A stretch of 15,634 bases of DNA, taken from IMG/VR virus record IMGVR_UViG_2713896900_000009; one strand, 5' to 3'. The notes beneath the pieces are model-generated. The model saw only the letters and a program-made list of their open reading frames with translations. It made no database searches and was not told the DNA's origin. The position numbers and the translations under genes were made by a program. Each line of letters begins with the position of its first letter. Within the stretch, counting starts at the first letter, position 1. The stretch comes from a virus. Lineage: Duplodnaviria > Heunggongvirae > Uroviricota > Caudoviricetes. Shown one piece after another: positions 3,424 through 15,634 of this stretch.

Positions 3424-4308
3424 ATGAAATGCATCCGAAAACATCCAGCAATAGCTTATACAGTAATTATTTTAGTTTTTGCCTTAATATACAATTTCAC
3501 TTGGAGCGTCAATCCAGATTCTTTCATTAAAAACAACGTTCTCAACTCTACACCTGTATATGATGCCGTTAATTTAGCATATGCGAACAATGAGGTAAAA
3601 AAAGAAGATCCTGTCAGTGTTTCGAGGGAAGTATTTGCAGAGCAAATTTTAACACTTACAAATCAATTCAATAAGATAATAATTGAAAACTTAGAACTTG
3701 AAAAAACATTATCTCAACAGCAAGAAAAATTAAAACAAATTAGTGAAAGACAATCAATAAAGTGGGGCGAAAACACCAAAAAATACATAGCAGACAGTTT
3801 GAAAGATTTACACAAAACGCTTATCACTAAAAATAGTGAACGTACTGCCATAACATCTTTAAAAAACAAAACAAATGAAAGTCAGATTAACATTATGCTG
3901 GCCGACAAAGATGAAGAAATAGCCAAAATAAACCTTGAAATAGCGTATAAAGAAAATGATGCTAATGTCTATATCTTATCTCATGTCGGCGACTTTAACG
4001 ATCCAATAATCGTTAATGAGCTTGACGCAATCAATAAAGAAATTGAGAAAACAAGAACAAAAATAATAAACAATAAAAAGAAAATAATGGAGATAAGGAA
4101 TAAATCTCAATCTATGCTGGAGAAACTCAAAAAAGATGACCTTAACTTTTGGGATTTCTTATTTTATAGCATAGGAATATCTACAACGACCACCTTTGGT
4201 GATTTGTTAGCAAATTCAAGACTTATCAGACTGATAGTTTGCGTGCAACTTTTACTATCAATTATAGTTTTAGCTAACGTAACTCAAAGGTTTTTATCAA
4301 AAAAATAA
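3424..4308 (+). CDS. AT-rich cargo (moron) gene encoding a membrane protein: N-terminal transmembrane segment, long Lys/Glu/Asn-rich predicted coiled-coil, C-terminal pore-loop-like two-helix module. Function unknown
   Basis: 294-aa ORF on the strand opposite to every neighbouring phage gene. Composition is visibly far more AT-rich than the flanks, with AAA/AAT/ATA codons dominating. N-terminal hydrophobic stretch AIAYTVIILVFALIY. C-terminus FWDFLFYSIGISTTTTFGDLLANSRLIRLIVCVQLLLSIIVLA resembles the pore-helix, filter and inner-helix of a K+ channel (for example the KcsA region LWWSVETATTVGYGDLYPVT) but with a non-canonical filter. Hairpin terminators flank it on both sides. There is no strong Shine-Dalgarno upstream. 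Confidence 0.6.
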   Translation: MKCIRKHPAIAYTVIILVFALIYNFTWSVNPDSFIKNNVLNSTPVYDAVNLAYANNEVKKEDPVSVSREVFAEQILTLTNQFNKIIIENLELEKTLSQQQEKLKQISERQSIKWGENTKKYIADSLKDLHKTLITKNSERTAITSLKNKTNESQINIMLADKDEEIAKINLEIAYKENDANVYILSHVGDFNDPIIVNELDAINKEIEKTRTKIINNKKKIMEIRNKSQSMLEKLKKDDLNFWDFLFYSIGISTTTTFGDLLANSRLIRLIVCVQLLLSIIVLANVTQRFLSKK

Positions 4309-7246: not shown

Positions 7247-7896
7247 GCCGCCATCTCCCTGACCAGTTTTTCCGCCTGCTGGCGAACCTGCGCCAGAAAG
7301 GCCTCACCACATGCCTCAAGTTCATCGCGCCCGATGTAGCTGATTGTCGGTCCCTTCCAGGTCTTGTCGAAAACAGCAATAGCACCAGCGAAGAACGCTC
7401 CTGTCGGCACCTGCTTCTCGTCCTTCGGGATAAACCAGGCAGGCAGTTCAAAACCAATACGCCCGCGAATAAAAGCAATATGGTCCGCATCTTCCGGCCA
7501 CCACACTTCGCTGGTGGCAGCTTTGATCAGGAAAACATAGCGCCCGCCCTTATCACGCATGGCACTGGCATGTTTCATGATGTAACGCATGCCGGTGATG
7601 TATTGCCCCTCATGCTGACTGGCGCGGCTGTATGGAGGATTTCCAAAGGCAGCACCTTTAAGCTCCGCAAGACGTTCTGACCAGTCATGCGCCAGCGCGT
7701 TGTCTTCCGCCGTGTAATACGCGGCGCATTTGGCGTTATCACCGTCAGTAAACAGATCCAGAACAAACGGGCCAAACAGGGTGTTAATTCCCCAGAAAAT
7801 GTTGTCCGGTGTGCGCCACTGATCGCCCACTTCCTTCAGTTCATGGGCTGGTTTGTTTCGCAACTCCACCAGCGCCTGGCAATATTTATTACTCAT
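7243..7896 (-). CDS. Phage Dam-like DNA N6-adenine methyltransferase (start at internal Met; track ORF extends to 7929)
   Basis: Catalytic NPPY motif (AAFGNPPYS) and overall resemblance to the small phage N6-adenine methyltransferase family of lambdoid nin regions. The ATG at 7894-7896 overlaps the upstream gene's stop in a TAATG arrangement. Confidence 0.7.
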   Translation of the reverse strand: MSNKYCQALVELRNKPAHELKEVGDQWRTPDNIFWGINTLFGPFVLDLFTDGDNAKCAAYYTAEDNALAHDWSERLAELKGAAFGNPPYSRASQHEGQYITGMRYIMKHASAMRDKGGRYVFLIKAATSEVWWPEDADHIAFIRGRIGFELPAWFIPKDEKQVPTGAFFAGAIAVFDKTWKGPTISYIGRDELEACGEAFLAQVRQQAEKLVREMAA

Positions 7897-8390
7897 TAAG
7901 CCCCCACGTAATTCCCTGACAGATACCACTCATCACCCGATACAGCGCGCTTGCTGCTTTTCCGTAAGCACCGCTCACGACGTGCCAGAAAATTGTTTCG
8001 TTCTGGCTGGGAGTGGCTTTCACGGAATGCCGCCATCCACACCGTTGCAGCACGACGGTATAAGCCCCTTGACTCCAGTTCTTCAGCCTGGCGGGTCAGG
8101 CACAAAATCACCCGGGGATCGTTAGTGCCGACATAGAAATTGCGCACAGGTCTGGTTTCACGAACTGGTTGTGGTTCCGGCTCCTGCGCTCTCTCAGTCA
8201 GGCGCGGGAAATGTCTGCGTGTATCTCCTTCACAACGGTGAGCCACACGCCCACTCTGACGTAACTTGCTTGCTGACTGCAGAACGCGCTGCCGTGAGTA
8301 ACCTGCAAAAGCATCCGCAATGTCTCCGGAAGTACACCCCGGATGGGCTTCAATGAATTTCTGAACTTCATTCAAAAGACTCATAATCAC
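7896..8390 (-). CDS. PerC-like putative transcriptional regulator with an N-terminal winged-helix-like region
   Basis: 164 aa. The C-terminal segment TRQAEELESRGLYRRAATVWMAAF resembles the PerC/Pch family core (..LE..GLWRRAA..W..). The start overlaps the replication gene's stop. Assignment is from memory and weak. Confidence 0.4.
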   Translation of the reverse strand: MIMSLLNEVQKFIEAHPGCTSGDIADAFAGYSRQRVLQSASKLRQSGRVAHRCEGDTRRHFPRLTERAQEPEPQPVRETRPVRNFYVGTNDPRVILCLTRQAEELESRGLYRRAATVWMAAFRESHSQPERNNFLARRERCLRKSSKRAVSGDEWYLSGNYVGA

Positions 8391-9328
8391 CCCCTGAATC
8401 CTGCCGGGATCTGGCTGTAGTCCACATTGTCGTAACTGGCTTTGAAGTACGGGTCTTCACGTTTTTCTGTGTGCGTGCTGACGGACGGCGATAAGCGCAG
8501 GGAAAGCTCATCCCATTTTTCCCGCAACTTCGACGGGCTGAGCACGTTACGGCACCAGAACGGATCGCGGCTGACGCGGCTGTACATCTCGCAGATTTGT
8601 TTGTGAGTACGACCATCCTGCACACACATCAGGCGAATTTCGTTTGCCCAGGCTGTCCAGTTAGGTTCTTTGGGACGAACCACCTCGCCGTCACATTCGG
8701 CGGCCTGCTCGTACAGGGCGATGATTTTTTTCCAGAGCCACTGTGCGCAGGTCAAATCATCCTGCGTTCCCCACTGGCGCTTTTTAGGGCTGAATACAAC
8801 CGCATCAGGATGGCGAGTTAAAAAATCCTGTTCATCCATCTGCGTGTCCGGTTGCGAAGCGTCCGGACGAGAAGGTTTTTTATCTGATGGATCATGTTTT
8901 GATTTTACTGACGGATCCCCGCCAGATTCTGACGGGTGAAAACCCGCTTTTTTGCCAGATTTCGACGCATCAAATTTTGACGGGTCAGATTTTGATGCGT
9001 CAGATTTTGACGGGTCAGAATCTGACAGTTGAGAAAATGCCGCTGCCTGAAGCTTCGCAACGTTAAGCTGATAAACATTCGACGCATTGCGGTTACCCTG
9101 GCGACGCGCCTTACGCGTTAACCAGCCTTCTGCTTCCAGCCGTGCGATAGCCGTTCTGACGGTACTCATCCCCGCGCCAATCTGGCGGGCAATGGTTTCA
9201 ATTGATGGCCAGCACACACCTTCGTCATTACTGAAATCAGCCAGGCGGGCCATAATTGCCACGCTGGATAATTTCATGCCTGACGCTGCGCAACCATCCC
9301 ATACATAGCCGGTTAATTTAGTGCTCAT
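8387..9328 (-). CDS. Phage replication initiation protein (O-like: N-terminal helix-turn-helix DNA-binding domain, repeat-encoded linker, C-terminal domain)
   Basis: 313 aa. N-terminal winged-helix region (WPSIETIARQIGAGMSTVRTAIARLEAEGWL). The central low-complexity linker SDPSKSDASKSDPSKFDASKS is encoded by tandem 15-bp DNA repeats. The gene sits in the O position downstream of the cro and CII-like genes. Confidence 0.6.
   Translation of the reverse strand: MSTKLTGYVWDGCAASGMKLSSVAIMARLADFSNDEGVCWPSIETIARQIGAGMSTVRTAIARLEAEGWLTRKARRQGNRNASNVYQLNVAKLQAAAFSQLSDSDPSKSDASKSDPSKFDASKSGKKAGFHPSESGGDPSVKSKHDPSDKKPSRPDASQPDTQMDEQDFLTRHPDAVVFSPKKRQWGTQDDLTCAQWLWKKIIALYEQAAECDGEVVRPKEPNWTAWANEIRLMCVQDGRTHKQICEMYSRVSRDPFWCRNVLSPSKLREKWDELSLRLSPSVSTHTEKREDPYFKASYDNVDYSQIPAGFRG
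8900..9030. repeat. Tandem iteron-like repeats of about 15 bp (TCAGATTTTGACGGG and variants, at least 6-7 copies) inside the initiator gene; candidate phage origin of replication
   Basis: Seen directly: tgattttactgacgg, cagattctgacggg, cagatttcgacgcat, caaattttgacgggt, cagattttgatgcgt, cagattttgacgggt, cagaatctgacagtt. The arrangement (iterons within the initiator gene's linker-coding region) parallels ori-lambda inside gene O. Confidence 0.5.
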
Positions 9329-10474: not shown

Positions 10475-10480
10475 ACAATA

Positions 10481-10497
10481 TGTACCTCCGGTGTACA
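10481..10497. promoter_or_regulatory. Operator-like inverted repeat TGTAC-N7-GTACA (site 1) in the cI/cro intergenic region
   Basis: Seen directly: tgtacctccggtgtaca, flanked by further symmetry (atatgtac...gtacatat). It sits next to the cro start, with the cro ribosome-binding site in its spacer. Confidence 0.45.
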
Positions 10498-10530
10498 TAT
10501 TACATGATTGAAATGAACCTTCAAGATACT

Positions 10531-10547
10531 TGTACCTTAACGGTACA
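10531..10547. promoter_or_regulatory. Operator-like inverted repeat TGTAC-N7-GTACA (site 2) in the cI/cro intergenic region, overlapping a possible promoter for leaderless cI
   Basis: Seen directly: cttgtaccttaacggtacaag, with perfect 8-bp arms. It lies just upstream of a possible -10 (TTTAAT at 10553-10558) placed about 7 nt before the cI ATG at 10565, which has no Shine-Dalgarno. Confidence 0.45.
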
Positions 10548-10564: not shown

Positions 10565-11239
10565 ATGAAAACAATCCATGACATCCGGCGGTCTAACGCC
10601 AGAAAACTGAGAGATGGTGTTGGCGGGAATTCTTCCTTTGCCACTATGATTGATCGCGAGCCAACCCAGACCAGCAGGTTTATGGGAGATGGTGCTACTA
10701 AAAATATCGGTGACAGCATGGCACGACACATCGAAAAATGTTTCGACCTACCTGTCGGATGGCTCGATCAAGAACACCAGACAACGAACATCACAAAAAA
10801 ACCTGATGTTTCAATCACTAATAAACAAATCACATTAGTCCCTGTCATATCATGGGTACAGGCCGGAGCATGGAAAGAAGTTGGATATTCTGAGGTTGAT
10901 TTGAGCACAGCAGAAACGTATCCCTGCCCTGTACCCTGTGGGGAAATGACTTATATCTTGCGGGTGATAGGTGATTCAATGATTGATGAGTACCGCCCGG
11001 GAGACATGATTTTTGTCGATCCTGAAGTACCTGCCTGCCACGGTGACGACGTTATTGCATTGATGCACGATACAGGTGAAACCACCTTCAAAAGGTTAAT
11101 AGAAGATGGGACACAGCGTTATCTCAAAGCGTTAAACCCAAACTGGCCTGAGCCTTACATTAAGATCAACGGTAATTGCTCTATAATTGGTACAGTGATT
11201 TTCTCAGGAAAACCAAGAAGATACAAAATCAAAGCCTAA
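10565..11239 (+). CDS. cI: CI-type prophage repressor with C-terminal S24 (LexA-like) autopeptidase domain
   Basis: 224 aa. N-terminal helix-turn-helix-like region. Probable Ala-Gly autocleavage site (VQAGAW), catalytic Ser in the GDSM motif (RVIGDSMIDEYRPGDMIFVDPE) and downstream Lys (TTFKRL). Divergent from cro. Confidence 0.85.
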   Translation: MKTIHDIRRSNARKLRDGVGGNSSFATMIDREPTQTSRFMGDGATKNIGDSMARHIEKCFDLPVGWLDQEHQTTNITKKPDVSITNKQITLVPVISWVQAGAWKEVGYSEVDLSTAETYPCPVPCGEMTYILRVIGDSMIDEYRPGDMIFVDPEVPACHGDDVIALMHDTGETTFKRLIEDGTQRYLKALNPNWPEPYIKINGNCSIIGTVIFSGKPRRYKIKA

Positions 11240-11250
11240 TCAATGTTTAT

Positions 11251-11275
11251 GAACCTGCTTCGGCAGGTTTTTTTA
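11251..11275 (+). terminator. Intrinsic terminator immediately after cI
   Basis: Hairpin gaaCCTGC-ttcg-GCAGGtt followed by a run of seven T (11268-11274), 12 nt after the cI stop. Confidence 0.7.
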
Positions 11276-11278
11276 TAC

Positions 11279-11306
11279 TTGACAATGTACCTTTGAGATA
11301 CATAAT
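11279..11306 (+). promoter_or_regulatory. Strong sigma70-like promoter (TTGACA, 16 nt, CATAAT) with an embedded operator-like TGTAC-N7-aTACA site; candidate PL/OL for the early-left operon
   Basis: Seen directly: -35 TTGACA at 11279-11284 and -10 CATAAT at 11301-11306. The spacer contains ATGTACctttgagATACAT (11285-11303), which matches the operator motif of the cI/cro region, and a second ATGTACC follows at 11304-11310. Confidence 0.5.
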
Positions 11307-11432
11307 GTACCCAAGAGAAACAACGAACAGGCAGGACGCCCACGAAGTAGCCGCCTGGGGCATATGAAGTCCAGGATGATTCGTTGAGTCATGTTGTGCC
11401 ACTAGGCACTCATGTTAAAGCAGGTGTATGAA

Positions 11433-11708
11433 ATGAAAGTCCAGATTTTAAACAATAACTGTGAAGTCGTTTGGTCATACGACATAGCCGCCCCTGTAGA
11501 TCAGAGCGGCGATAGCTGGACCAATGGGAAACATCAGATTATGGCTGGAGTTGTGTTCTCTTTACGCCGTGCTTTGGAACAGGCTGAAGTATTTCCATCA
11601 GACCCTGAATGGAAATGGCCTTTTTCTATTTGTCCAAATTCGGAGAGCACATTTCAGAAAATTGGTCAGAAAGTCGCACTCGAAGAGCATCAGCCAACTG
11701 TTTCCTGA
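11433..11708 (+). CDS. Hypothetical small acidic protein (91 aa from the Met with a ribosome-binding site; track ORF starts at 11412), first ORF after the PL-like promoter
   Basis: AGGTG lies 6 nt upstream of the ATG at 11433. No arginine-rich motif, so it does not look like an N antiterminator. No family recognised. Its 3' end overlaps a convergent ORF. Confidence 0.35.
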   Translation: MKVQILNNNCEVVWSYDIAAPVDQSGDSWTNGKHQIMAGVVFSLRRALEQAEVFPSDPEWKWPFSICPNSESTFQKIGQKVALEEHQPTVS

Positions 11709-11871
11709 TTTTTTCAGGTAACTCGTCGGCATCGCAGAAACAACAACGCTCGATCATGTTGAAAGCCGATTCGTAGAACTGTTTCTGCTGAGTGTCGCTG
11801 AGACAGGAAAAGAGCGACGTTACGATGATTTTATTAATTGCATTATCAAGTTCTTTTTCATCAAAAGTCAT
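11626..11871 (-). CDS. Hypothetical small protein (81 aa) antisense to the early-left direction, convergent with and overlapping 11433..11708
   Basis: Good ribosome-binding site (AAGGAAA about 7 nt upstream of the ATG at 11869-11871). Acidic, with a CCFC motif. No family recognised. Not certain that both overlapping ORFs are real. Confidence 0.35.
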   Translation of the reverse strand: MTFDEKELDNAINKIIVTSLFSCLSDTQQKQFYESAFNMIERCCFCDADELPEKIRKQLADALRVRLSDQFSEMCSPNLDK

Positions 11872-11974
11872 TTGATTTTCCTTTTATGTATACGGGCTTA
11901 AAAGGATACCACCGAGCCTGAAGTGGTGAAAAGACAGGCACATAACAGCTAAGTATTTTCAACCAAAGAGAATC

Positions 11975-12300
11975 CTTAGCGTTGTGGTGAATGCGGCTCA
12001 GCGCACGCGGGTTAAGGTTGAGGCTGACAGTCAACCTTCTGTGGATACCCACCCGTCTGGTGTGCAACCTTCGCCAGGCACCGGGAGGCACCCGGCACCA
12101 CAACTTTATGCTGTGTGTAGTCCTGGCGGTACCAGTTTGTACCCTTGCTTCCGGCTGGTACCGTCCTTTTTACAAAACAGAGAAGAGCATCACCGGACGA
12201 CGGGCTCATAACCCAATCCATCCGGGCGGCTGCCACCGCAGGTGTTCTTCTCTGTTTTGTGGAGAAACTAATCGGCCTTGCAGGGTCGATATGATGAGGA
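11975..12300 (+). other. GC-rich, hairpin-dense, apparently non-coding segment; possible structured RNA or cis-acting antitermination/processing element
   Basis: No convincing protein in any frame; the in-frame 5' extension of the downstream gene is Arg/Cys-rich low-complexity. Contains a perfect 8-bp-stem hairpin AAGGTTGA-ggctgacag-TCAACCTT (12005-12029), a pair of complementary GGTACC-containing segments (12117-12124 and 12149-12156) and near-repeats GGCACCGGGAGG / CACCCGGCACC. Confidence 0.25.
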
Positions 12301-12308
12301 GCAGCAAA

Positions 12309-12671
12309 ATGGCTAGCGAACGCAGTACTGATGTGCAGGCATTTATCGGGGAGCTGGACGGCGGCGTATTTGAAACCAAAATCGGCGCAGTTCTCAGTGA
12401 AGTCGCTTCCGGTGTGATGAACACGAAAACCAAAGGTAAGGTCTCACTCAACCTGGAAATCGAACCATTTGATGAGAACCGTGTGAAAATCAAACACAAA
12501 CTCTCATATGTTCGCCCGACTAACCGCGGGAAAATTTCCGAAGAAGACACCACCGAAACGCCGATGTATGTCAATCGCGGTGGTCGCCTGACTATTCTGC
12601 AGGAAGACCAGGGACAATTACTGACTCTTGCCGGTGAACCTGACGGAAAACTCCGCGCAGCAGGTCATTAA
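12309..12671 (+). CDS. yfdP: YfdP-like hypothetical protein (120 aa from the Met with a ribosome-binding site)
   Basis: GAGGAG lies 8 nt upstream of the ATG at 12309. Same length as, and same position relative to the YfdQ-like gene as, E. coli K-12 CPS-53 yfdP. Identity is from recollection of gene order and size, not verified. Confidence 0.45.
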   Translation: MASERSTDVQAFIGELDGGVFETKIGAVLSEVASGVMNTKTKGKVSLNLEIEPFDENRVKIKHKLSYVRPTNRGKISEEDTTETPMYVNRGGRLTILQEDQGQLLTLAGEPDGKLRAAGH

Positions 12672-12736
12672 TATCGTTCTTAATTAACTGATTATTTATC
12701 TCATCACTGAATATCTTTATATAGTGAGGACTTATT

Positions 12737-13561
12737 ATGTCTCAGAACTTAGACGCAACCGCAATTAATCAAATCCATGCCCTTATTTCTGCTCAGGGTG
12801 TTAATGAAATTATCAGTAAGATTGGTGCCGATGCTGTGGCATTGCCTGAGAATTTCCACATTCATGATCTGGAAAAATTTAATTTAAATCGCTTCCGTTT
12901 CCGTGGTGCGCTTTCCACTGCCAGCATCGATGACTTTACCCGTTATTCTAAAGATCTTGCAGATGAAGGCACCCGCTGCTTTATCGATGCTGATAATATG
13001 CGTGCCGTCAGTGTGCTTAACCTAGGTACTATTGATGAACCAGGTCACGCAGATAACACCGCCACTCTCAAACTGAAAAAGACAGCACCGTTCTCTGCTC
13101 TGTTGTCTGTTAATGGCGAGCGTAACTCCCAGAAATCACTGGCAGAATGGATTGAAGACTGGGCCGACTACCTTGTGGGCTTTGATGCTAATGGTGACGC
13201 CATTCAGGCAACCAAAGCGGCTGCGGCGATCCGTAAAATCACAATTGAAGCGAACCAGACCGCTGATTTTGAAGATAATGACTTCAGCGGCAAACGCTCC
13301 CTGATGGAGTCTGTCGAAGCGAAGACCAAAGACATTATGCCAGTGGCATTTGAATTTAAATGCGTTCCATTTGAAGGTCTGAAAGAACGTCCGTTTAAAT
13401 TACGCCTCAGCATTATCACTGGCGATCGTCCTGTACTGGTTCTGCGCATTATTCAGCTGGAAGCGGTGCAGGAAGAAATGGCTAACGAATTTCGTGATCT
13501 GCTTGTTGAGAAATACAAAGACAGCAAAGTAGAAACCTTTATTGGTACTTTCACCGCCTGA
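12737..13561 (+). CDS. yfdQ: YfdQ-like protein (DUF2303 family)
   Basis: 274-aa ORF with clean coding character, same size as E. coli CPS-53 YfdQ and followed by a YfdR-like HD-domain gene. Assignment is from memory. Confidence 0.55.
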
Positions 13562-13688
13562 TTTCATTACTGCAAATGCCCCTGCGGGGGCATTTATGGA
13601 AACGTAATTAACTCAATAATCACCGAATGGTGAGGGCTTCCTTTTACCAGAATTCAGCGCGGTGCAGTGCATATACGTGGAGAACAAA

Positions 13689-14237
13689 ATGTCATTTATT
13701 AAAACTTTTTCCGGGAAGCATTTTTATTATGACAAGATAAATAAAGACGACATCGATATTAACGATATCGCGGTTTCCCTTTCAAATATCTGTCGCTTTA
13801 CCGGTCATCTTTCGCACTTCTACAGCGTCGCCCAACATGCGGTGCTTTGCAGCCAGCTGGTACCGCAGGAATTTGCTTTTGAAGCGTTAATGCATGATGC
13901 AACAGAAGCGTATTGCCAGGACATCCCCGCACCACTGAAACGCCTTCTTCCTGACTATAAACGGATGGAAGAAAAAATAGACACCATAATCCGTGAGAAA
14001 TACGGGTTACCCCCGGTTATGAGCACGTCTGTGAAATATGCCGATCTCATCATGCTGGCAACCGAACGCCGCGATCTCGGGCTTGATGATGGCTCTTTCT
14101 GGCCTGTACTGGAAGGTATCCCGGCAACAGAGATGTTCAACGTGATTCCACTGGCACCGGGCCATGCCTACGGGATGTTTATGGAACGCTTTAAAGAGCT
14201 GCATAAGATGCATAAACAATCCAGACAGCGAAATTAA
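13689..14237 (+). CDS. yfdR: HD-domain phosphohydrolase, YfdR-like
   Basis: His and His-Asp motifs characteristic of HD domains (GHLSHFYSVAQHAVL; LMHDATEAY). Start at the Met with GGAGAA 5 nt upstream (ATG at 13689; track ORF starts at 13662). Resembles E. coli prophage YfdR as I recall it. Confidence 0.6.
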   Translation: MSFIKTFSGKHFYYDKINKDDIDINDIAVSLSNICRFTGHLSHFYSVAQHAVLCSQLVPQEFAFEALMHDATEAYCQDIPAPLKRLLPDYKRMEEKIDTIIREKYGLPPVMSTSVKYADLIMLATERRDLGLDDGSFWPVLEGIPATEMFNVIPLAPGHAYGMFMERFKELHKMHKQSRQRN

Positions 14238-14280
14238 CTAGTGAAATAGTTTTGTAGCAAAAGAAATGAGGTTATCAAAA

Positions 14281-14526
14281 ATGCTTCAAATGCTGACACT
14301 TGAGGAATGGGCTGCGGAAAAATACAGAAGTAATCCTCCAAGCGTGTCCACATTGCGTCGTTATGCTAAGCAGAATTTATTTTGTCCACCGGCAATGAAA
14401 CAAGGTCGACTATGGCGAGTGCGTGAGGACGCAGAGTTAGTTGGGGAATTAGTTACTCCTGTCATCAAGAAAAATGATTCTATTATTCTACAAAGGATTT
14501 TAAGTAATGGCAGCCAGACCACGTAA
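14281..14526 (+). CDS. xis: Excisionase (lambda Xis-like)
   Basis: The translation MLTLEEWAAEKYRSNPPSVSTLRRYAKQNLFCPPAMKQGRLWRVRED aligns by eye with lambda Xis (MYLTLQEWNARQRRPRSLETVRRWVRECRIFPPPVKDGREYLFHE). Its 3' end overlaps the integrase start, as in lambda. Start is assigned at the Met preceded by GAGG (track ORF starts at 14266). Confidence 0.7.
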   Translation: MLQMLTLEEWAAEKYRSNPPSVSTLRRYAKQNLFCPPAMKQGRLWRVREDAELVGELVTPVIKKNDSIILQRILSNGSQTT

Positions 14527-15634
14527 AAATAATGTTTCAGTCCCGAACTTGTATCCGCTTTATAGTAGAAAAGTAAATAAAGTCTATTGGCGATATAAAC
14601 ATCCAGTGACCGGGAAGTTTCATTCTTTAGGCACAAACGAAGCTGAAGCCATTGCTATTGCCACTGAGGCAAATTCACGCCTGGCTGAGCAAAGAACCCG
14701 GCAGATTCTGGCTATCAGTGACAGGATCGCAACCAGCAAAGGAAAAGCAATCACAACGTCAACCTGGTTAGATCGCTATCAAGCAATCCAGGATGACAGA
14801 CTGGAAAGTGGCGATATAAAGCTAAACACCTATAAACAGAAAGCCAAACCAGTATCCTTGCTCAGGGAACGAGCAGGAATGAAATTAATTTCATCAGTTG
14901 ATGTAAGGGATATAGCACAATTACTTGACGAGTATATCACTGCCGGGCAACCGAGGATGGCGCAAGTAGTCCGCTCCGTTCTAATTGATGTATTCAAGGA
15001 GGCACAACACTATGGGGAAGTCCCTCCGGGCTATAATCCAGCACTGGCAACCAAACAACCCAGAAGAAAAATTACCCGACAACGGTTAAGTCTTGAAGAA
15101 TGGCAAAAAATCTTTGATATCGCAGATGCCCGCCATCGTTATATGGGGAATGCCATGCTGTTAGCACTGGTTACCGGCCAACGGTTAGGTGATATCTCAC
15201 GTATGAAATTTAGCGATATTTGGGATGATCATCTTCACGTCATCCAAGAAAAAACCGGGAGCAAAATCGCCATCCCGCTTTCCCTTCGCCTCAATGCAAT
15301 TAACTGGAGTTTACGCGATGTAGTAGCCCGCTGCCGTGACTATGCAGTCAGCCCATACCTTGTACATTTTTTTCGTACTACTTCACAGGCTGAACGTGGC
15401 GCGCAAGTAAAAGCCAATACATTGACGATGAATTTCAGTAAAGCGAGGGATTTAGCAGGCATTGACTGGGGTGAAGGTTCGCCAGCCACATTCCATGAAC
15501 AAAGATCTTTATCTGAACGCCTATACAAAGAACAGGGGTTAGACACACAAAAACTACTAGGCCATAAATCTCCAATACAGACGGCTCGATACCATGATGA
15601 TCGAGGGAAAGACTGGTTGAAAATTCAAATATAA
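14507..15634 (+). CDS. int: Tyrosine integrase (lambda Int family)
   Basis: 375 aa. The C-terminus LLGHKSPIQTARYHDDRGKDWLKIQI matches the lambda Int catalytic end (HxxR...Y motif; lambda ends ...YRDDRGREWDKIEIK). N-terminal arm-binding-like region. Last gene in the window, so the attachment site is expected just beyond 15634. Confidence 0.9.
   Translation: MAARPRKNNVSVPNLYPLYSRKVNKVYWRYKHPVTGKFHSLGTNEAEAIAIATEANSRLAEQRTRQILAISDRIATSKGKAITTSTWLDRYQAIQDDRLESGDIKLNTYKQKAKPVSLLRERAGMKLISSVDVRDIAQLLDEYITAGQPRMAQVVRSVLIDVFKEAQHYGEVPPGYNPALATKQPRRKITRQRLSLEEWQKIFDIADARHRYMGNAMLLALVTGQRLGDISRMKFSDIWDDHLHVIQEKTGSKIAIPLSLRLNAINWSLRDVVARCRDYAVSPYLVHFFRTTSQAERGAQVKANTLTMNFSKARDLAGIDWGEGSPATFHEQRSLSERLYKEQGLDTQKLLGHKSPIQTARYHDDRGKDWLKIQI

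Follow-up and report, generated by a model that had tools for sequence, protein, structure and literature searches.

The genes described here have counterparts in the cryptic prophage CPS-53 (KpLE1) of Escherichia coli K-12, in the Shigella flexneri phage SfV and in the Salmonella phage ST64B. [quoted passage not shown] A plasmid carrying yfdQR only, pBS17, failed to suppress hda-185, and the authors concede that the initiation block may be an overexpression artefact (PMC4776307). K-12 YfdR binds domain I of DnaA at Phe46 (PMC4776307). Its affinity for nucleotides is reported to be low (PMC4776307, citing Zimmerman 2008). [quoted passage not shown] The yfdPQR trio is common in lambdoid early-left operons, and the function of YfdP and YfdQ is unknown (PMC12315714, Genome Res 2025). 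A preliminary description of the present locus stated that YfdR binds DnaA and that overexpressed yfdQRST inhibits initiation, which agrees with the published account (PMC4776307).

The window, that is, the whole stretch of viral DNA analysed here, is 15,634 nucleotides long, and the features given below from 11251 onwards lie on its plus strand. It carries yfdP (12309..12671, 120 aa), yfdQ (12737..13561, 274 aa, DUF2303) and yfdR (13689..14237, 182 aa, HD-domain 5'-deoxynucleotidase). The open reading frame list opens yfdR at a GTG at 13662, while the annotated ATG at 13689 agrees with the K-12 and RefSeq starts. The preliminary description saw three co-oriented genes with good ribosome-binding sites, and this holds: the reading frames have exactly the limits it gave, and GAGGAG, GTGAGGA and GGAGAA, all Shine-Dalgarno-like, precede the three starts. 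It had called the cluster YfdP/YfdQ/YfdR-like. A BLASTP search against the MG1655 proteins gives 119/120, 271/274 and 165/176 identities (99%, 99% and 94%). The genes are therefore alleles of the K-12 genes, a closer relation than likeness. E. coli prophages that are 98% identical have these three genes in their RefSeq annotation too, and a match is present in 3112 of 5426 complete E. coli genomes, more than half. Since the three are near-identical copies of E. coli prophage genes described before, the cluster is real but ordinary.

The trio sits in the early-left operon, between cI and xis-int, as first proposed. The cI-type repressor gene (10565-11239) is followed by an intrinsic terminator (11251..11270; stem GAACCTGC/GCAGGTTT, then a T run), and the annotation of phage SfV places a terminator at the equivalent position. 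A probable pL promoter, TTGACA-16-CATAAT, matches 11 of 12 consensus positions (11279-11306). Two operator-like sites built of TGTACC..GGTACA half-palindromes overlap it (11286-11302 and 11306-11322), and the same half-palindromes recur at OR (10480-10499, 10512-10530 and 10531-10547). Repression of pL would act through these sites. The first reading frame of the early-left transcript (11412..11708, 98 aa) corresponds to SfV orf33 and matches phrog_3195 over its full length (E = 6.4e-70). Past the trio, xis (14266-14526, Exc family in Pfam) starts 28 nt after the yfdR stop and is followed by a lambda-type integrase gene (14507-15634; Pfam Arm-DNA-bind_1 and Phage_integrase). Both are of the e14 type. 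The closest matching E. coli prophage adjoins icd, and in a 98%-identical prophage of strain AHB3 xisE and the integrase are annotated next to icd. In the visible 15.6 kb the lysis, Q, replication, immunity and int/xis genes are intact. The replication region has an O-like initiator; a helicase loader is not recognisable in it. From this layout, we infer that yfdPQR is not expressed in the lysogen and that its transcription starts soon after induction, when the terminators of the leader are passed. An internal promoter may lie ahead of the STnc100-like element described next, or ahead of yfdR.

Between the first reading frame and yfdP lies a structured leader. Positions 11959..12174 match the Rfam family STnc100 (RF02076) below its gathering score (39.9 bits against 47, E = 8.5e-6), and the match ends in a terminator hairpin, T1 (about 12123-12170, then U5). 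The RF02076 match recurs in SfV and, in part, in ST64B. Compensatory changes keep the T1 stem across related phages, its two strands being GGCGGTACCAG/CTGGTACCGTC, GTCGGCGTC/GACGCCGAC or GGCGGCATC/GATGCCGC in the copies compared. A second element, T2 (12173..12259), was recognised by folding and covariation; it is three-armed, with an 18-bp basal stem bearing two arms. At the tip of arm 1, positions 12202-12214 (GGGCUCAUAACCC) are identical to the top of the initiator-tRNA anticodon arm, and direct comparison gives a 14-nt identity to metZ. The window contains a single copy of this motif, where 0.01 copies would be expected. The minimum free energy of T2 has a z-score of -3.15. Across 19 variants (RNAalifold and pair counts), 96.9% of cells are paired, against 37-48% in slid controls, and seven pairs show compensatory change. 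The variants are 94-121 nt long, with lengths that are not multiples of 3, so T2 is non-coding.

Other identities of the leader were rejected. PGAP annotates a frameshifted hypothetical protein here, and a reading frame from 11991 runs in frame into yfdP. A coding leader was discarded because this 106-aa extension has no PHROG match, the stems covary and the variant lengths differ by non-multiples of 3. A comparison of 11240-12320 with the whole HK022 genome (blastn-short, nhmmer) gave only chance matches, and a put antiterminator RNA of the HK022 kind was rejected. The window has a single STnc100-like match and a single T2 core, not a nutL/nutR-like pair. ARAGORN finds no tRNA gene in the leader.

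The preliminary description read HD motifs in the last gene, and these are legible in YfdR as the metal ligands H50, H69-D70 and D119, to which E73 and D78 can be added. The protein is orthologous to K-12 YfdR (b2361), and RefSeq names it yfdR, 5'-deoxynucleotidase. The two alleles differ only in the last ~8 residues, so a recombination junction is located there. Its H...HD...D motif aligns with that of PDB 2gz4 (E = 1.3e-13), which places it in the HD-domain phosphohydrolase superfamily. It has HD_3 and YfbR-like Pfam matches, and it matches phrog_318, 'deoxyribonucleoside 5' monophosphate phosphatase', with E = 2.4e-107. The dmp product of phage T5 is likewise an HD dNMP phosphatase. Carried over from the 94%-identical K-12 protein, the only one for which they are known (PMC4776307, Zimmerman 2008 as cited there), both dNMP phosphatase activity and binding to DnaA domain I are predicted for YfdR of the window.

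YfdP belongs to the family PF27127/phrog_204 (phrog_204, E = 1.2e-49), and all YfdP homologues carry PF27127 in precomputed annotation. YfdQ matches PF10065 (DUF2303) over model positions 2-269 of 269 (E = 4.7e-92; 308.5 bits, cut-off 26.6) and is also assigned to phrog_210. Nearly all members of its family, which forms 1770 clusters at 50% identity, are single-domain proteins of 265-285 aa. YfdQ is related to PDB 9o7m, a Xanthomonas-phage 'YfdQ Protein' (E = 1.2e-44), and that entry holds 36 YfdQ chains. Searches with phmmer and with a five-sequence profile find no YfdP chain in the PDB, 9o7m included. A literature search found no paper on 9o7m or on DUF2303 function. The AF2 model of YfdQ (pLDDT 74) has no significant match to solved folds, nor does that of YfdP match any, and no DNA-binding motif was detected in either protein.

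Comparison across phages separates the three genes into two units. In the window yfdP and yfdQ lie on the same strand, 65 nt apart. A YfdP homologue stands directly upstream of YfdQ in 7/7 diverse phage loci inspected, and the HD gene follows the pair in only some of these. The pair is present in Salmonella, Stx, Pseudomonas, Vibrio, Xanthomonas and Psychrobacter phages, with YfdP homologues 36-61% identical. It neighbours ssb, exonuclease and recT genes in TL-2011c and in Vibrio and Xanthomonas phages. TL-2011c and JUN5 carry it together with complete Rec modules, so it does not stand in for a recombinase, as PMC12315714 also argues. The idea that YfdQ is a hidden recombinase or RdgC homologue was dropped, with an HHalign probability of 0.1, these coexisting Rec modules and the argument of PMC12315714 against it.

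Viral contigs that carry the leader and extend at least 2.2 kb beyond it number 96, a set dominated by closely related enterobacterial prophages whose events are not independent. Of these, 72 carry yfdP, yfdQ and yfdR, ~11 carry rdgC and yfdR, in ~9 yfdR comes straight after the leader, and a few lack all three genes. In related phages yfdR is nearly always downstream of the leader, and yfdP-yfdQ is sometimes replaced by rdgC or missing. In the ~11 viral contigs and in phage F1055, rdgC (PF04381, E = 1.5e-115 and 1.4e-30) occupies exactly the slot from the leader to yfdR. A stem-loop lacking a U tract lies between yfdQ and yfdR (13574..13595; AAATGCCCC-TGCG-GGGGCATTT). In loci with yfdR straight after the leader (L014, L025, L028 and others) the junction falls at this hairpin, which marks the 5' edge of the yfdR module. 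The replacement by rdgC at the yfdP-yfdQ position is circumstantial only.

The reading we favour, with a probability of about 0.6, is that yfdPQR is a segment of the pL operon of an SfV-like lambdoid prophage with e14-type xis/int, that yfdS and yfdT were lost or never present, and that the segment consists of two modules. The genes are identified, they lie behind a strong, operator-covered promoter, and their conserved leader has at least one covarying intrinsic terminator. The constant module, yfdR, would encode a metal-dependent HD phosphohydrolase whose substrates are 2'-deoxynucleoside 5'-monophosphates. In the early part of the lytic cycle, YfdR would act on host DNA metabolism, by dephosphorylating dNMPs, by mildly interfering with the DnaA-DiaA/DnaB contacts, or both. 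The yfdP-yfdQ pair would be a separate, widely conserved two-gene cassette. Its products probably form a higher-order assembly acting on DNA replication or recombination intermediates.

The preliminary description went further and suggested that the cluster may redirect host replication. In such a takeover, YfdQ and YfdR together would keep DnaA from initiating replication at oriC once the prophage is induced, and host replication proteins would become available to the phage. Multicopy yfdQRS or yfdQRT does inhibit initiation in vivo, and extracts do so in vitro (PMC4776307); with an O-like initiator and no recognisable helicase loader, dependence on host initiation proteins is conceivable. 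However, the minimal set needs yfdS or yfdT. The preliminary description found neither before xis, and tblastn with K-12 YfdS and YfdT finds no homologue in the whole window (best E = 1.9 and 0.16), where yfdR and xis are 28 nt apart. Because yfdQR alone (pBS17) fails, the published block is not transferable to this cluster. Deletion of yfdQRST has no replication phenotype, an overexpression artefact is allowed for by the authors (PMC4776307), and competition by YfdR alone is only moderate. The YfdR-DnaA contact and the yfdQRST block behind the suggestion stand, but the missing genes weaken it, and we consider takeover unlikely. Counter-defence, in which the HD protein would degrade a nucleotide messenger or deplete a nucleotide used in defence while YfdP and YfdQ inhibit another defence, is very unlikely. 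The early accessory-gene position and the HD fold are all that favours it. The preliminary description had raised hydrolysis of a nucleotide signal, and this finds no support: YfdP, YfdQ, YfdR and their neighbours have no match in PADLOC-DB at E <= 0.01, the nearest relatives that have been characterised dephosphorylate dNMPs (PHROG 318), and K-12 YfdR is reported to bind nucleotides with low affinity. A literature search finds no link of yfdPQR to defence.

Two further alternatives concern yfdP-yfdQ and the lysogen. The products of the pair might act as RdgC does, binding DNA as an oligomer and modulating RecA or recombination on phage or host DNA, with yfdR an unrelated neighbour. The presence of rdgC at exactly this position in ~11 viral contigs and F1055, the ssb, exonuclease and recT neighbours, the weak sensitivity to MMS and H2O2 reported for strains lacking yfdQ (PMC4776307) and the 36 chains of 9o7m all point this way. 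Yet YfdP and YfdQ have no sequence or fold similarity to RdgC and no detected DNA-binding motif, and a mosaic swap at one position does not prove equal function; the analogy is unlikely. Expression in the lysogen for tolerance of oxidative or alkylation stress, as proposed for K-12 CPS-53, is very unlikely. It would fit the deletion phenotypes of K-12 yfdQ and yfdS (PMC4776307) and the finding that K-12 expresses its yfdPQ operon in stationary phase in dependence on SrsR (PMC9181523), but the SrsR-box-carrying yfdO-yfdP spacer of K-12 is not in the window, where the genes are instead preceded by an operator-covered pL and the two hairpins of the leader. A more speculative joint reading, quite unlikely as a whole, makes YfdP-YfdQ a new high-order DNA-transaction complex doing the job of RdgC in sister phages and T2 a regulatory RNA that mimics initiator tRNA. 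The three G:C pairs and CUCAUAA loop of T2 may then engage a partner that recognises tRNA-fMet. Candidates may include the 30S P site/IF3, MetRS or a tRNA-processing enzyme, and through such a partner T2 may govern whether the early-left operon is read through or translated.

The cluster itself adds nothing new, being known in E. coli, SfV, ST64B and many Stx phages and discussed in print. What changes is the functional expectation, which is corrected: the replication block on record depends on yfdS or yfdT, and the prophage has neither. PHROGs 204 and 210, abundant phage families with about 1800 clusters at 50% identity, gain sharper handles in a unit separate from the HD gene, its alternation with rdgC and a 36-chain structure. 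The upstream leader may repay study more than the proteins do, because it is conserved, covaries and is not in Rfam.

Several known systems resemble parts of the locus. YfdR shares with YfbR, the housekeeping 5'-deoxynucleotidase of E. coli, the H...HD...D metal site, the small single-domain size and a dNMP phosphatase naming (PHROG, RefSeq). The kinship is remote, however, with YfdR below both curated cut-offs for the YfbR type (PF12917, 24.7 bits against 25.9; NCBIfam equivalog NF003009, 19.5 against 122). The nucleotide affinity of YfdR is reported to be far lower than that of YfbR (PMC4776307), and DnaA binding is known for YfdR only. In some related phages RdgC is encoded where yfdP-yfdQ would otherwise stand, after the conserved leader and ahead of yfdR, but it is one gene against two and has no homology to YfdP or YfdQ detectable by HHalign. 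The alignment of 11959-12174 with the STnc100/PasD family of prophage sRNAs covers the entire model, from its outer helix and CCGGGAGGCACCCGG hairpin to a 3' terminator hairpin. The window element scores below threshold and lies in the early-left leader, whereas canonical copies lie in the late region, downstream of stx2 (PMC12370729).

Among whole prophages, K-12 CPS-53 agrees with the window in how yfdPQR are ordered and spaced and in how they are oriented with respect to the excisionase gene. It differs in having yfdS and yfdT. Upstream, it has the yfdO-yfdP spacer with SrsR boxes where the window has the pL leader, and homology between the two reaches no further upstream than about 25 nt from the yfdP ATG. 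The integrase is of another type and the integration site is not the same, K-12 having argW and torI where the present prophage has icd and xisE. The Salmonella phage ST64B (sb37-sb36-sb35), LLS and phiNP carry the trio after a long non-coding leader with an STnc100-like core, T1 and T2. Their proteins are merely 57-66% identical to those of the window, they have no reading frame from cI to the yfdP homologue, and extra accessory genes precede xis. SfV (U82619; relatives SfII and SfIV) keeps orf29 (yfdS) and orf28 (yfdT), has its own xis/int and contains a C4/isrK RNA region within the immunity region that is absent from the window. It nevertheless shares the order cI-terminator-orf33-terminator-orf32(P)-31(Q)-30(R) with the window and is 99.8% identical to it over the leader (11880-12308).

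The three genes at 12309-14237 are alleles of the named K-12 genes and not distant relatives, since the identities are high and the same annotated arrangement occurs in E. coli genomes. yfdP (12309-12671, +) encodes 120 aa, yfdQ (12737-13561, +) 274 aa and yfdR (13689-14237, +) 182 aa. For yfdR the ORF list starts at a GTG (13662), but the ATG at 13689, behind GGAGAA, is the biologically sensible start. All three appear in the ORF list and have BLASTP and PHROGs matches, and YfdQ and YfdR also match Pfam. A preliminary description had proposed a YfdP/YfdQ/YfdR-like trio here and asked for a sequence search on its identity. The trio was borne out by BLASTP against E. coli K-12 MG1655, with 119/120 identities for YfdP, 271/274 for YfdQ and 165/176 for YfdR. 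YfdQ matches DUF2303 (E = 4.7e-92) and YfdR matches YfbR-like/HD_3. YfdP and YfdQ fall in phrog_204 and phrog_210, both labelled 'unknown function', and YfdR in phrog_318, 'deoxyribonucleoside 5' monophosphate phosphatase'. The HD motifs noticed earlier in the last gene are borne out: its ligands H50, H69-D70 and D119 line up with Atu1052, a homologue of solved structure (2gz4). By megablast with 11350-14600 as query, the yfdP-yfdQ-yfdR-xisE-integrase arrangement is found at 97-98% identity in 305 complete E. coli genomes, and some part of the query is matched in 3112 of 5426. The cluster is thus already known and widely annotated, a real but ordinary finding.

By sequence comparison, the cluster divides into two modules, a yfdP-yfdQ cassette on the one hand and yfdR plus the hairpin upstream of it on the other, because yfdP-yfdQ occurs elsewhere without an HD gene and leader-linked yfdR occurs in some contigs without yfdP-yfdQ. 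A YfdQ profile search gave 1770 clusters at the 50% identity level; with few exceptions these proteins have a single domain and 265-285 aa. The 181 phage records with a YfdQ homologue cover Stx, cdtI, ST64B, Vibrio, Xanthomonas, Pseudomonas and Psychrobacter phages, among others. In every neighbourhood opened, a YfdP homologue (115-135 aa, 36-61% identity) lies directly upstream of YfdQ, often with ssb, exonuclease, recT or gam as neighbours. Among these neighbourhoods an HD gene directly follows YfdQ only in ST64B-like phages; a Pseudomonas phage has one three genes away, and the others have none near. The opposite holds behind the leader, as counted in the 96 viral contigs that have it and extend far enough downstream; most of these are related enterobacterial prophages, so that the counts are not independent. 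yfdP-yfdQ-yfdR is present in 72 of the 96. In about 11 (L017, L035, L040, L046, L047, L087 and others) an RdgC-family gene (PF04381) precedes yfdR, as it also does in phage F1055 (L012, 2001-2918). In about 9 (L014, L023, L025 and others) yfdR comes directly after the leader, starting 187 nt after the core of the T2 leader RNA. A few contain none of the three genes; yfdR is almost always kept. Between yfdQ and yfdR lies a GC-rich hairpin of 9 perfect base pairs that lacks a U tract (13574-13595, +). In loci lacking yfdPQ it coincides with the recombination boundary of the yfdR module.

AF2 models of YfdQ (pLDDT 74) and YfdP (81) gave no convincing match to solved folds, in libraries that do not include 9o7m. 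The PDB sequence file contains one YfdQ relative, 9o7m 'YfdQ Protein' (E = 1.2e-44), and no YfdP-like chain. All 36 chains of this entry share a single 274-aa sequence, which has 98.8% identity to a Xanthomonas phage MET23-P3 protein. So many copies suggest a large homo-oligomer; we found no paper on 9o7m.

The analysis demonstrates the identity of the genes, their place in the genome, the structure of the leader and the limits of the modules, and onto these we place the reading we favour (probability about 0.6). The genes would be pL-controlled early genes, YfdR would act on host DNA metabolism, and an oligomeric YfdP/YfdQ complex may serve in DNA transactions. K-12 YfdR has dNMP phosphatase activity and binds DnaA (PMC4776307). 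In the same study, multicopy yfdQRS or yfdQRT suppressed hda-185 and inhibited initiation, and yfdP was dispensable. A genuine takeover of host replication by the present cluster is nevertheless unlikely, as the published block needs yfdS or yfdT and the window has neither: tblastn with the K-12 queries found no homologue of either in the whole window, which upholds and widens the earlier statement that both are absent before xis. yfdQR alone (pBS17) did not suppress hda-185, deletion mutants showed no phenotype in replication, and the authors accept that overexpression may have produced an artefact (PMC4776307). The two YfdR activities, and the need for yfdS or yfdT, come from literature on near-identical proteins.

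An RdgC-like role of YfdP-YfdQ would fit the replacement of this pair by an RdgC-family gene behind the same leader in those 11 or so contigs, but HHalign showed no relation to RdgC, and we consider this role doubtful. A study of the trio in lambdoid early-left operons describes the two proteins as lacking a known function and as unlikely recombinases, given that the trio is found alongside full Rec modules (PMC12315714). That the cluster benefits the lysogen is improbable, and counter-defence by nucleotide hydrolysis still more so. Together with the early-gene reading that we prefer, these explanations are not all mutually exclusive.

Control from pL is suggested by the sequence upstream. An intrinsic terminator directly after the repressor gene (11251-11270) is followed by the best sigma-70 match of the region, TTGACA-16-CATAAT (11279-11306). 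Two TGTACC..(A/G)(G/A)TACA sites (11286-11322) overlap and follow this candidate promoter, and three operator-like TGTACC-N5-7-GGTACA sites lie between cro and cI (10480-10547). We infer that promoter and sites form pL/OL. Transcription from there would cross a 98-aa ORF (phrog_3195) and a non-coding leader of ~350 nt before it reaches yfdP; yfdPQR would be repressed in the lysogen and expressed early after induction. The candidate ORFs 11412-11708 (+) and 11626-11871 (-) are convergent and overlap by 83 nt. The former matches phrog_3195 and the latter phrog_3311, each over its full length and both without known function; the minus-strand counterpart in E. coli AHB3 is called as only 49 aa.

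Rfam gives one match in the leader, STnc100 (11959-12174, +), at 39.9 bits, below the gathering score of 47 (E = 8.5e-6). It is matched in SfV too, and partially in ST64B. This family of prophage sRNAs is related to PasD (bioRxiv 10.64898/2026.05.13.724894) and has its canonical copies downstream of stx2 (PMC12370729). A weak promoter-like TTGACA/TATAAT pair (8/12) lies just upstream (about 11925-11953), so the element could be either a separate sRNA or part of the pL leader. Its 3' part is T1, a hairpin (about 12123-12170, +) with U5 behind it. Related phages carry different yet complementary sequences in the stem of T1 and keep the CUUUUUAC tail, as expected of a real terminator, so T1 is best read as a covarying intrinsic terminator.

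T2 (12173-12259, +), a conserved, covarying three-armed RNA, directly follows T1 and ends 49 nt upstream of the yfdP ATG (MFE -53.6 kcal/mol, z = -3.15). Scanning IMG/VR with a 27-nt core pattern returned >120 contigs, thinned to 19 variants. RNAalifold and explicit pair counting gave an 18-bp basal stem and two arms, with 96.9% of cells paired against 37-48% with slid partners. Compensatory change is seen at seven pairs (one position, for example, has C-G 10 / G-C 9), and the covariation score of 0.175, against 0.091 in shuffles, was reached by 0/500. Part of the invariance of the core among IMG/VR loci stems from the collecting pattern itself. However, the most distant relatives, LLS, phiNP and Phi06, which are BLAST-only matches, keep just this block (query positions 288-349, 230-349 and 294-348). 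ST64B has CUCAUUA where T2 has CUCAUAA. The tip of arm 1, CGGGCUCAUAACCC (12201-12214), equals the top of the anticodon stem and the loop of initiator tRNA, as checked against metZ. Its 13-mer GGGCUCAUAACCC (12202-12214) is expected 0.01 times in the window, and ARAGORN found no tRNA gene. T2 has no Rfam entry. A nut- or put-type antiterminator is unsupported, because the leader has no similarity to HK022 put, and neither Rfam nor a motif count found another copy in the window. The T2 variants are 94-121 nt long, and their differences in length are not multiples of three. This speaks against both the PGAP/RefSeq 'frameshifted hypothetical protein' (L001 6635-6945, window about 11984-12294) and an ORF from 11991 in frame into yfdP. 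That annotation and several N-terminally extended YfdP calls of 148-199 aa (among them P0122, P0123 and P0128) look like artefacts of an open frame across structured RNA. We found no prior description of T2 with its initiator-tRNA look-alike or of the yfdP-yfdQ/rdgC alternation, and both deserve separate follow-up.

The remaining window has a lambdoid layout on the minus strand, with cro-like and CII-like genes, an O-like HTH replication protein, PerC/YfdN, Dam, a LexA-DNA-binding protein, RusA, KilA-N, DUF968, Q, a DNA methylase, holin, lysozyme and spanin. The replication region (7896-9328, -) has the O-like protein followed by PerC/YfdN and Dam; no helicase or helicase loader was recognisable in the window. 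Between Q and the late genes, on the opposite strand, lies an AT-rich insert (3424-4308, +; 31% G+C against about 50% around it). Its 294-aa product has a membrane segment at the N-terminus, then a long stretch rich in Lys and Glu, and at the C-terminus an Ion_trans_2 pore-like domain (24.5 bits), with no PADLOC match; a moron or abortive-infection gene is possible.

In AHB3 the counterpart, 98% identical, is flanked by a ymfK/ymfT/ymfL-type immunity region on one side and by xisE, integrase and then icd on the other. Homology between K-12 CPS-53 and the window reaches back no more than about 25 nt before the yfdP ATG, which makes the SrsR-regulated yfdO-yfdP spacer of K-12 (PMC9181523) irrelevant here. 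To the right of cro, SfV (L009 755-943) and ST64B (L003 617-805) have genes for C4 antisense RNA and isrK, a secondary immunity of the P1/P7 type; the window has different genes there and no C4/isrK match. Shigella phage SfV is 99.8% identical to the window over 11880-12308. Its annotated order is cI, terminator, orf33, terminator, orf32, orf31, orf30, orf29, orf28, xis, int, and Noguchi and Katayama assign YfdQRST homologues to ORFs 29-31 (PMC4776307). By this identity and gene order, the window carries an SfV-type immunity and early-left region without orf29/orf28 (yfdS/yfdT), and the junction with an e14-type xis/int falls in the last ~30 nt of yfdR, the stretch over which the C-terminus of YfdR diverges from that in K-12.
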